Part shown: piece by piece, positions 37,789 through 40,700 of the stretch | How the letters are laid out: each line of letters opens with the position of its first letter | How positions within the stretch are numbered: position 1 is the stretch's first letter | Assembly: GCA_964534275.1 (NCBI GenBank) | Contig: CAZHQG010000007.1 | Location: forward strand, 27,202-91,201 | Reading direction: 5' to 3' | From: an uncultured Candidatus Binatia bacterium | GTDB lineage: Bacteria; Desulfobacterota; Binatia; HRBIN30 | DNA: 64,000 nt | The notes under the pieces: model-generated | The model's database searches: none | Seen by the model: only the letters and a program-made list of their open reading frames with translations | What the model was told of the DNA's origin: nothing | Made by a program: the position numbers and the translations under genes

Positions 37789-40700
37789 TTACGCTCCGTG
37801 ACACTTCTTGTACTTTTTGCCGCTGCCACATGGGCAAGGGTCGTTGCGCCCGACTTTCGCTGCTCCTGGTTGCTGGGCTGGTCGGTTTGGACGATTGGCG
37901 CCGGCCGCCAGAGTAGGAGCCATGCCTCCACCGCTCATCACCATCCGGGCCGGTTGAGGGCGCCGTTGCCGTTCGAGCTGCTCTACGTCCTCTTCTCGCG
38001 CAATCTGTACGGTGAAGATCTTTTCCACCACATCGCGTTCGAACTGCTGCATCAAGGCCTCGAACAGTTCGAACGCTTCCTTCTTGTACACCTGAAGCGG
38101 GTTTTGCTGGGCGTACCCTCGCAGCCCGATGCCTTCCTTCAGGTGGTCCATGGAAAGCAAGTGGTCTTTCCACAAGGTGTCGAGAGTTTGCAGGAGAACG
38201 ATCTTTTCCAGGTGCCGCAGCACGGGCGGAGTGAACAGTTGCTCTTTGGCCTCGTAGTGTTGGTGGACCATGTCCAGGAGCCGGCCTTCGAGCTCGCTGA
38301 CGGACAGTTGTTGCCGCTCTTCGGCGCTGAACGAGGGGCGAAAAGCAAAGACCTTGTAAACGGTGTCCTCGATCGCCTGCCAATCCCAATCGAGCGGAGG
38401 CGCGTCTTTGTCCGTGTACTGCGCGACGATCTCGAGCAAGACGTTTTCCGCCATCTCCAGGACGTCTCGCTTGAGGTTCTGGCGTGCCAGAATTTCACGG
38501 CGGCGCCCGTAAATGATTTCGCGCTGCTGGTTCATCACGTCATCGTACTCGATGAGGTGTTTGCGGATGTCGAAGTTGTGCGCTTCGACTTTTGCCTGCG
38601 CATTGGCAACCGCGCGCGAGATCAAGCGATGTTCGATGGGTTCCCCTTCCTCCATGCCGAGGCGGGTCATCAATCCTTGGATGCGTTCGGCGCCGAAGAT
38701 GCGCAGGAGGTCGTCTTCGAGCGACAAGAAAAAGCGCGACGCTCCCGGGTCCCCCTGGCGGCCCGCCCGCCCGCGTAACTGGTTGTCGATGCGCCGGCTT
38801 TCGTGCCGTTCGGTGCCGATGATCATGAGCCCGCCGGCGGCGACGACCTTCTCGCGCTCTTGCGCGCACAGCTCGCGGTAATGGGCGAGGATTTCCTCGT
38901 ACCGGGTGCGCAAGGTGTCAGGCGCCTTTTCCATCTCCTCGCGCACGTCTTCCACGACCTTCGTGTACTTGCGCCGTTTTTCTTCGTACTCTTGTTGGGC
39001 CTTTGCGATGGCTTCCTCGTAAGGTTTGCGGTGTTCTAGGTACGCTGCTTCGGCCTCGCGGAATTCGCGTTCGGTTTCCTCGTAGATCCTACGCGCTTCT
39101 TCGAAATCGCTACCGTCGCCTTCCACCTGCGTCAGAGCCTTTTGGATCGCTCGTTCGTAATCCGCACGGGCGCGTTCGAACTGTGCCAAGGCGGCCTGGA
39201 CGCGACTCCCGTTGCTGGCACCGTTTCCAGACGCTTCTGCAAGGGCTGCCTGGAGCTCTTCCAAGCTCCGCAAGAAACGGCCCTGGCCTTCCTCGTCGAA
39301 GAACGGGCCACAGACCCGGTCGACCTCTTGCAGTGCCTCTGCGTAGGCGTGCACTTGGGTCTGGCAGGCCTCGGCCAAGTTGGCCGTGGCTTCCGTACGC
39401 CACTGCGCGAGGCGCTCCAGGAGTGCACGGCGTTCCTTCCAAAAGCGCGCTTCCAGAAACGCACGATGGGCTTCGGTCAGACGGTGGAGCGCGTCCGCTT
39501 GCTTTTCTTCGAAGGGCTTCCACAGGGGCTCGTACTGCTTGCGCGCGCGCTCGACGGCTTCGTCGTACGCATCGCGGAGCTTTTGCAAAACGTCTTCGTA
39601 CCGCTGCCCGGCTTCGGGGAGACCTTGAGCGCGCTGCAACCACTCGTTTTCCATGTCCGCGCGGGCGAGGAACTCGGGGTTGCCGCCCAGGAGGATGTCG
39701 GTGCCGCGCCCCGCCATATTCGTGGCAATGGTGACGGCTTTATAACGTCCGGCCTGGGCGATGATGTTCGCCTCGGCCTCGTGATTCACCGCGTTCAGCA
39801 CGTTGTGCTTGATGCCGCGTTGTTTCAGCAGTTTGGAGAGCCGCTCGGACTTTTCGACCGATACGGTGCCTACCAGGACTGGCTGTCCCCGCTCGTGGCA
39901 CTCGACCACTTGTTCCACGACGGCGTTGAATTTTTCGCGTTCCGTTTTGTAGACCACGTCCGGGTAGTCGATCCGGATCATCGGCTTGTTGGGCGGAATC
40001 ACCACGACGTCGAGGTTGTAAATCTTCTTGAACTCGACTGCCTCGGTGTCTGCCGTTCCGGTCATGCCGGCAAGCTTCTTGTACATCCGGAAGTAGTTCT
40101 GGATGGTAATCGTCGCGAGAGTTTGGTTTTCCCGCTCGATGGGAACGCCCTCCTTCGCCTCCACGGCTTGGTGCAAACCGTCCGACCAGCGCCGACCTGG
40201 CATGAGGCGACCAGTGAACTCGTCGACGATGATCACTTGACCGTCCTTCACGATGTAATCCACGTCGCGACGGAAAATCGCGTGGGCTTTGAGGGCTTGG
40301 TTGACGTGGTGCAGAATGTCGATGTGGCGCGGGTCGTACAGGTTCGTGATGCCGAGCAACCGTTCCACCTTGGCGATCCCTTGCTCGGTCAGGACCGCGG
40401 TTCGGGCTTTTTCGTCGACCCAGTAGTCCCCGGTTTCTTCTGGGCGCTCGTCGGGGCTGCGTTTTTCCTTCCGCTCGCCCCGCTGTAAACGGGGAATGAT
40501 ACGGTTGATCCGTTCGTATTTCTCGGTGGATTCTTCGGAGGGACCGGAAATGATCAGCGGCGTGCGGGCCTCATCGATCAGGATGTTGTCGACCTCGTCG
40601 ACGATGGCGTAATGGAGTTCGCGCTGGACGTACTCGTCCAAGCTGAACTTCATATTGTCGCGCAAATAGTCGAAGCCGAATTCGTGGTTTGTGCCGTAGG

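Follow-up and report, generated by a model that had tools for sequence, protein, structure and literature searches.

A giant VAR subdomain in the SecA translocase ATPase of the uncultured phylum Binatota

The secA gene and its interrupted NBD2

The window analysed here, a 64,000-nucleotide stretch of contig CAZHQG010000007.1 (GenBank assembly GCA_964534275.1) from an uncultured Candidatus Binatia bacterium, carries on its reverse strand a secA gene whose product holds a giant VAR subdomain within NBD2. A reading made from the letters alone (hereafter the sequence-only reading) had described an 843-bp, 281-residue insert in this SecA at 38836-39678, and exactly 281 amino acids (aa) were located there, between the two conserved NBD2 anchors. 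The main elements of the locus are as follows.

secA open reading frame (ORF): 37789-41448 (-), 1219 aa from the first GTG; the sole long ORF over the segment
N-terminal anchor GTDILLGGN: 39679..39705 (-), aa 582-590; the conserved NBD2 motif preceding the VAR, invariant in 52 aligned relatives
Giant VAR subdomain of NBD2, 281 aa: 38836..39678 (-), aa 591-871
C-terminal anchor, 15 residues: 38791..38835 (-), aa 872-886

The Pfam models SecA_DEAD (PF07517, E-value 1.4e-126, NBD1), SecA_PP_bind, P-loop_SecA, SecA_SW and SEC-C are all present in the encoded protein, with PF01043, PF21090 and PF07516, which cover the preprotein cross-linking domain, NBD2 and the helical scaffold/wing domains, scoring far over their cut-offs and the SEC-C zinc motif (PF02810) placed at aa 1201-1218 (the zinc motif itself at aa 1205). 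The catalytic motifs are intact (Walker A MKTGEGKT at aa 159, DEVD at aa 284 and GRAGRQGD, motif VI, at aa 893), and comparison with E. coli SecA (2fsf) gave an E-value of 2e-268. Identification of the protein as a canonical SecA1-type preprotein translocase ATPase, with all motifs and the zinc finger, is well supported by its sequence. The GTG that opens the mechanical ORF precedes by nine codons the ATG used in database entries (41421-41448, -). Because one such entry (P0012) is 100% identical to the window SecA and 1210 aa long, the true start is likely the ATG at 41421, giving 1210 aa.

The P-loop_SecA model is interrupted by the 281-aa segment and matches in two stretches, and the alignment with E. 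coli SecA runs up to query residue 602 (E. coli 521) and restarts at query residue 865 (E. coli 537). Between the same anchors the alignment gives ~34 aa in E. coli, in agreement with the ~33 aa quoted by the sequence-only reading, ~70 aa in Thermus (2ipc) and ~0 in B. subtilis and T. maritima, whose SecA alignments end at the first anchor. The segment consists of 17.4% E, 16.0% A, 11.4% R, 8.5% L, 6.8% Q and 4.6% K; its earlier description as rich in E, A, R, K and Q is borne out by the 56% share of these five residues, E and A each being about twice as frequent as elsewhere in SecA. The GC content at third codon positions (GC3) is 0.73 in the segment versus 0.74-0.75 in the remainder of secA. 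The gene order in the window is murI-secA-argJ and is repeated in a related locus (L003), which suggests a core gene; another related locus (L001) has other neighbours.

Authenticity and phylogenetic distribution

Of the 31-mers sampled from 38600-39900, 88-100% are present in each of twenty public metagenome runs, which belong to at least 15 studies and represent hot-spring, soil, sediment, rhizosphere and microbial-mat samples. An assembly artefact, which the sequence-only reading had itself raised as a concern, is countered by single contigs from four independent runs that span the segment without gaps, covering at least 38523-39988 with 0-5 substitutions, no indels and depths of 32 to 859. 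The five substitutions in one of these runs (X8) include three within the insert, two synonymous and one I814V. Contig 'joints' that skip ~830-1140 bases were seen in low-depth contigs of 90-95% similarity and are interpreted as coming from other community members, whose SecA genes would match the conserved flanks alone. A metatranscriptome contig (38780-39038) runs across the junction between insert and NBD2, and the 90%-identity cluster of the 1210-aa protein comprises 16 members from JGI, ENA, NCBI and Logan, every one 1210 aa long.

A word-index search with the insert returned 11 fragmentary proteins, at first hinting at split genes. In three ENA metagenome assemblies with related loci, tblastn recovered the whole of secA, insert included, interrupted by 3-6 frameshifts per locus and annotated there as a series of short ORFs (L001 5016-8640, L002 4808-8457 and L003 4633-8272); murI and like neighbours in these assemblies also appear truncated. 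Such splitting is typical of error-rich assemblies, not of pseudogenes. The view that the segment is an artefact or a non-protein element (mis-assembly, chimera, intein or intron, or a disordered low-complexity linker) could appeal to these genes in pieces and to the E/A/R-biased composition, but the split-gene assemblies still hold the complete insert, independent contigs span the region, the frame is open and 246 relatives share the segment. It is further opposed by an all-alpha prediction with a predicted local distance difference test (pLDDT) score of 93, by close relatives that are nearly free of indels and by the lack of any Hint/intein domain according to Pfam. The artefact explanation is already refuted, and we leave it next to no chance. 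An intein or other self-splicing insertion was likewise ruled out, considering the absence of a Pfam hit in the segment, the all-alpha prediction and the junctions (P591 and A871/G872).

The clade was surveyed with two full-length searches, one from the window SecA and one from a distant relative (P0134), each listing 120 cluster representatives of 1011-1291 aa, and VAR lengths were counted in the 255 listed sequences of >1000 aa. Both anchors were found in 246 of the 255, at an inter-anchor length of 213-382 aa (median 281), and none of these 246 anchor-bearing relatives, whose identity goes as low as 57%, shows an ordinary short VAR. Where names are given, the relatives are mostly called Candidatus Binatia, Deltaproteobacteria or HR30, Deltaproteobacteria being an older label for bins of Binatota, an uncultured phylum of seven orders in which HRBin30 comes from thermal springs (PMC8262859). 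A scan for the insert across one genome per GTDB species yielded seven loci, in bacterium HR30 (85% identity), three Candidatus Binatia metagenome-assembled genomes (MAGs), bins labelled Myxococcales and Margulisiibacteriota, and a groundwater 'Deltaproteobacteria' bin (30%); the window SecA is 89% identical to that of HR30. SecA of the Binatota type also occurs in NCBI bins labelled Margulisiibacteriota, Kryptonia, Gaiellaceae, Zixibacteria and Myxococcales, and the oddly labelled bins are probably mis-binned or mislabelled contigs.

With the 281 residues as HMMER query, 1.84 billion cluster representatives yielded only 46 matches at E-values up to 0.001, and a Pfam check of 10 of the 46 identified nine as SecA proteins or fragments and one as an odd ORF (P0160). 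This 300-aa ORF combines an N-terminal homogentisate dioxygenase-like cupin with a last stretch of 80 residues that is 54% identical to helix H6 of the insert, and is probably a chimeric or frameshifted gene call. Judging by the sequences sampled, the giant VAR is a trait of the Binatota clade, present in every relative; the earlier description of the insert as lineage-specific stands, with a VAR of 213-382 aa in all 246 anchor-bearing relatives and no other protein context found. No Pfam family matches the 281-aa segment itself, and a sequence search of the insert against the PDB gave nothing under an E-value of 0.2. An already characterised VAR of like length was sought as well, and the literature searched holds no description of a comparably long VAR or of this domain, the Binatota genome paper (PMC8262859) making no mention of SecA.

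Predicted fold, conservation and candidate functions

AlphaFold2 was run on aa 470-940 (NBD2 plus insert, 52 sequences) and on the insert alone (58 sequences). The first run reproduced the expected strands and helices of NBD2 together with an all-helical insert at block pLDDT values mostly of 85-97, and the second gave seven helices, the same as in the NBD2 context, at a mean pLDDT of 92.9 and a predicted template modelling score (pTM) of 0.76. The insert is predicted with high confidence to be a folded, elongated, all-alpha seven-helix domain, with the following parts.

H1: 39631..39678 (-), aa 591-606, 16 residues; outgoing stem helix of the ancestral VAR hairpin, mean conservation 0.85
H2: 39394..39600 (-), aa 617-685, 69 residues; N-terminal part conserved in all lineages, C-terminal part variable
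Distal variable region H3-H5: 39136..39384 (-), aa 689-771; identity down to 0.18-0.5
H3: aa 689-713, 25 residues
H4: aa 719-742, 24 residues
H5: aa 744-771, 28 residues
GNGASNG turn: 39208..39228 (-), aa 741-747, between H4 and H5; chief site of length variation
H6: 38926..39105 (-), aa 782-841, return helix of 60 residues; C-terminal part conserved in all lineages
H7: 38839..38922 (-), aa 843-870, 28 residues; returning stem helix of the ancestral VAR hairpin, holding C861

The sequence-only reading had envisaged a long antiparallel coiled-coil arm around a central GNGASNG turn. The turn was found at aa 741-747, with the large length differences among 13 aligned relatives lying around it, and long outgoing and returning helices (69 and 60 residues) with an a/d-type hydrophobic bias are indeed predicted, but they appear to belong to a seven-helix domain and not to a plain two-stranded coiled coil. 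A multi-helix bundle is indicated because there are five further helices and both long helices contain conserved prolines (P641, P645 and P809); judging from helix lengths and conservation, the domain may form a single long arm, or else two bundles stacked coaxially and linked by H2 and H6, which would run through both. Mean-field direct coupling analysis (DCA) on 228 VAR sequences (effective number of sequences, Neff, 132) returned top pairs that were all gap-correlated columns, unusable for packing. A fold search, proposed earlier together with structure prediction as a check of the insert, gave no significant match: Foldseek with the insert alone found nothing significant in the PDB (best E-value 0.06, template modelling (TM) scores 0.12-0.27) or among the viral structures of BFVD (best E-value 0.02, TM ≤0.27), and its lists consist of generic long-helix proteins, including BAR domains, a trypanosome receptor, de novo bundles and tape-measure proteins. 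With NBD2 and insert combined, SecA alone was matched in the PDB, via NBD2, the rest being non-significant long-helix proteins.

The two ends of the segment can be traced to known SecA proteins. By phmmer, aa 591-607 pair with Thermus 589-605, aa ~830-871 with Thermus 615-658 and aa 865-871 with the E. coli protein; H1 aligns with the Thermus VAR stem NPEYLAAALLEKEGF, and H7 with Thermus ELLERIREIREECKQDEERVRALGGL, conserved Cys included, and with E. coli ...HDAVLEAGGL. It is well supported by these alignments that the first and last helices represent the ancestral VAR hairpin, with ~236 residues (~aa 607-842, five helices) nested inside it.

Conservation divides the domain into a base and a tip. 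Conserved across all lineages are both stem helices (H1 and H7), the opening third of H2 and the closing half of H6, with the motifs RYED.L..LR..Y[DE]E in H2 and KPYE.A...A...YE..R..Y...VE.[IV]RE[EQ][ML].KAP in H6, while sequence and length diverge from the end of H2 through H3-H5 to the beginning of H6. All of the shortening in the 213-aa form and the extra length of the 311, 326-340 and 379-382-aa forms map to this divergent region in 13 aligned relatives, the 326-382-aa forms gaining 50-100 aa there. Where the conserved and variable halves meet lie P641 and P645 in H2, P809 in H6 and P843 at the H6/H7 turn, conserved at ~70% (P641) or at least 90% (each of the other three), which may mark a joint. 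The 'Cys pair' of the sequence-only reading did not hold up: the segment has three cysteines (C695, C713 and C861), of which C861 alone is conserved, being nearly invariant, and relatives carry 1-5.

In 118 close relatives, aligned almost without gaps, mean identity to the window protein is 0.58 for the insert, 0.86 for the NBDs and 0.64 for HSD/HWD. Non-synonymous differences per site reach 0.09-0.19 in the insert versus 0.08-0.13 in HSD/HWD, with synonymous differences saturated at 0.75-0.81, and this pattern indicates that the insert is kept by purifying selection. Of nine occurrences of Y-[DEA]-[DERQPK] counted in the segment, six fit Y-[DE]-x-[A/I/V]-[I/V/L]. The two motifs earlier described as mirrored are both present (aa 628 and aa 810) but share one orientation, as direct recurrences of Y-[DE]-[DE]-A-[VI]. 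The insert BLASTed against itself showed no internal repeat; hhalign gave a probability of 37% between its N-terminal and C-terminal halves and of 52-80% between helix units, over only 13-21 columns, which is weak evidence for an internal duplication. Such similarity and the recurring Y-[DE]-[DE]-A motif would suit an origin as near-neutral baggage, a helical expansion, perhaps by serial duplication of a VAR helix, that would be tolerated at a permissive surface site and kept solely by the need to stay folded; the freely varying length of the tip and the E. coli VAR, which is said to be dispensable, would suit it as well. However, no loss was seen in the 246 relatives, with sequences down to 57% identity, the new, non-ancestral segments H2a and H6b are conserved in every lineage, and constraint equals that on the HSD/HWD domains. 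We consider this origin quite improbable.

The net charge of the domain is -16 in the window and -8 to -29 in the 244 relatives measured. Direct docking to acidic lipid or ribosomal RNA (rRNA) is disfavoured and appears unlikely because the domain is strongly acidic in all of these relatives. A broader docking role, in which the projecting helical domain would recruit a partner (ribosomal protein, chaperone, SecYEG/SecDF or membrane) for an accessory function, draws on the elongated and, in the models, probably surface-exposed shape of the domain and on its retention by selection across a phylum, and the authors of SecA surveys propose that lineage-specific loops mediate new interactions (PMC6620043 and PMC7023208). 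Against it stand the conserved negative charge, where acidic phospholipids or rRNA are the partner, the tip, which is the most exposed yet least conserved part and shifts in length by up to ~170 aa, and the neighbourhood of secA, where no conserved partner gene adjoins in the window, L001 or L003. The sequence variability of the tip argues against a conserved partner site there, and a docking arm of this kind seems to us rather unlikely.

The insert helices show an amphipathic periodicity of 3.4-3.8 residues together with an a/d-type hydrophobic bias, and such heptad-like patterns in long helices are also compatible with pairing between protomers, by which the arm would stabilise a SecA dimer or oligomer and possibly aid heat stability. 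Dimer stabilisation has been suggested for the 76-aa NBD2 insert of Thermales (PMC7023208), and the window lineage comes from hot springs. The Thermales insert, however, occupies another NBD2 site (Thermus 466-540), like charges would repel, and relatives from soil, rhizosphere, sediment and groundwater have the giant VAR as well; self-association is in our view doubtful. A thermophily-specific explanation was rejected, these non-thermal relatives carrying the giant VAR too.

The function of the domain is probably an enlarged VAR-type regulation of the ATPase cycle. A role of the VAR has been established by experiment in E. coli only, where it regulates both ATP hydrolysis and the release of ADP by the SecA DEAD motor (Das et al. 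2012, J Bacteriol 194:2205, as cited in PMC6620043). By analogy, the best explanation, to which we give an even chance, is an expanded VAR whose conserved base on NBD2 would tune nucleotide turnover as a regulatory element and whose variable acidic distal part would form a rigid projection. This distal part may act as a spacer, steric or electrostatic, or provide a contact through which SecA self-associates or meets a co-evolving basic partner, rather than offering membrane or rRNA a conserved place to dock. Deletion of the E. coli VAR reportedly leaves cells viable, azide-resistant and PrlD, with a modestly hyperactive SecA and faster ADP release. Several points weigh against an expanded regulatory VAR. 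Since the E. coli VAR is reportedly dispensable and its effect modest, ~250 extra conserved residues seem excessive for fine-tuning; the alignment behind the structure prediction is shallow (identity of at least 31%, one clade), which makes the tertiary packing less secure than the helices themselves. A more far-reaching possibility, which we put forward tentatively, is that the giant acidic VAR would be an autonomous accessory module that changes SecA action phylum-wide, the motor being gated by a contact absent in the studied SecAs. Such a module could be a rigid arm that binds a basic partner (a ribosomal protein, the basic C-terminal tail of SecA or a Binatota-specific factor) or one that links protomers.

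Elsewhere in the window, 34222-36135 (-) encodes a 637-aa protein with a PQQ-type glucose/sorbosone dehydrogenase domain after a Cys-rich DUF4215 repeat; its N-terminal region is long and Arg/Ser-rich, and the ORF start may be over-extended.

Relation to known VARs and to other SecA insertions

The window SecA departs from E. coli SecA at further sites. NBD1 contains, close to its N-terminus (aa 65-114, window 41107-41256, -), a second insertion that varies between lineages and comprises ~50 residues rich in E, R, A and L; it is absent in E. coli and in distant giant-VAR lineages (GRGTD at ~506 instead of ~568), and a third group has ~50 more residues (GRGTD at ~620). This insertion could be an intramolecular partner of the giant VAR. 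About 15 extra NBD1 residues relative to E. coli SecA, conserved among relatives, were also observed at aa 217-232 (window 40753-40800, -).

The segment shares its insertion point, from GTDI.LGG to the second NBD2 anchor, with the known VAR (E. coli ~519-547). Known VARs are helical hairpins of ~30-70 aa, whereas the window segment has 281 aa and seven predicted helices; lying outside this size range, it is classed as an expanded variant, distinguished by five extra nested helices and new conserved motifs in H2 and H6.

The closest likeness among other SecA insertions is to the 76-aa conserved signature insert in NBD2 of Thermales (Khadka, Persaud & Gupta 2019, PMC7023208; structure 2IPC), which is also large, lineage-specific, surface-exposed, at the periphery of NBD2 and found in organisms of hot environments. 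The Thermales insert is, however, a quarter the size of the giant VAR, without sequence similarity to it, and lies at Thermus 466-540 (between SERLSQMLKEP and GIPHQVLNA), upstream of the VAR, where the window SecA has no insertion. Identity of the two was rejected, the sites being different. The 50-aa insert of Thermotogales/Aquificales (PMC7023208) and the 45-aa insert of Bacteroidetes (PMC1887533) are likewise clade-diagnostic insertions in a conserved motor, but much smaller, and the 50-aa one lies in NBD1. F-BAR domains, the trypanosome haptoglobin-haemoglobin receptor, SMC coiled-coil fragments and de novo bundles share with the giant VAR only the general shape of long antiparallel helices. 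Long SecA proteins also occur in Bacteroidota (~1100 aa) and Planctomycetota (~1200 aa).

SecA is heavily studied, yet the role of its VAR is known from one 29-residue deletion in E. coli only. The phylum-wide VAR described here, four to eight times larger and composed of a conserved base and a freely varying tip, offers a naturally exaggerated system for asking what the VAR does, be it control of the nucleotide cycle, self-association or partner docking. It is also a clean molecular marker for Binatota that could flag mislabelled bins, and it adds a confidently predicted all-alpha domain without structural or sequence relatives in the searches made. The giant VAR alone does not open a long-standing question. 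Lineage-specific SecA inserts were already known, and what is surprising in this one is its size and conservation, which make it an extreme version of the VAR rather than a new kind of system.

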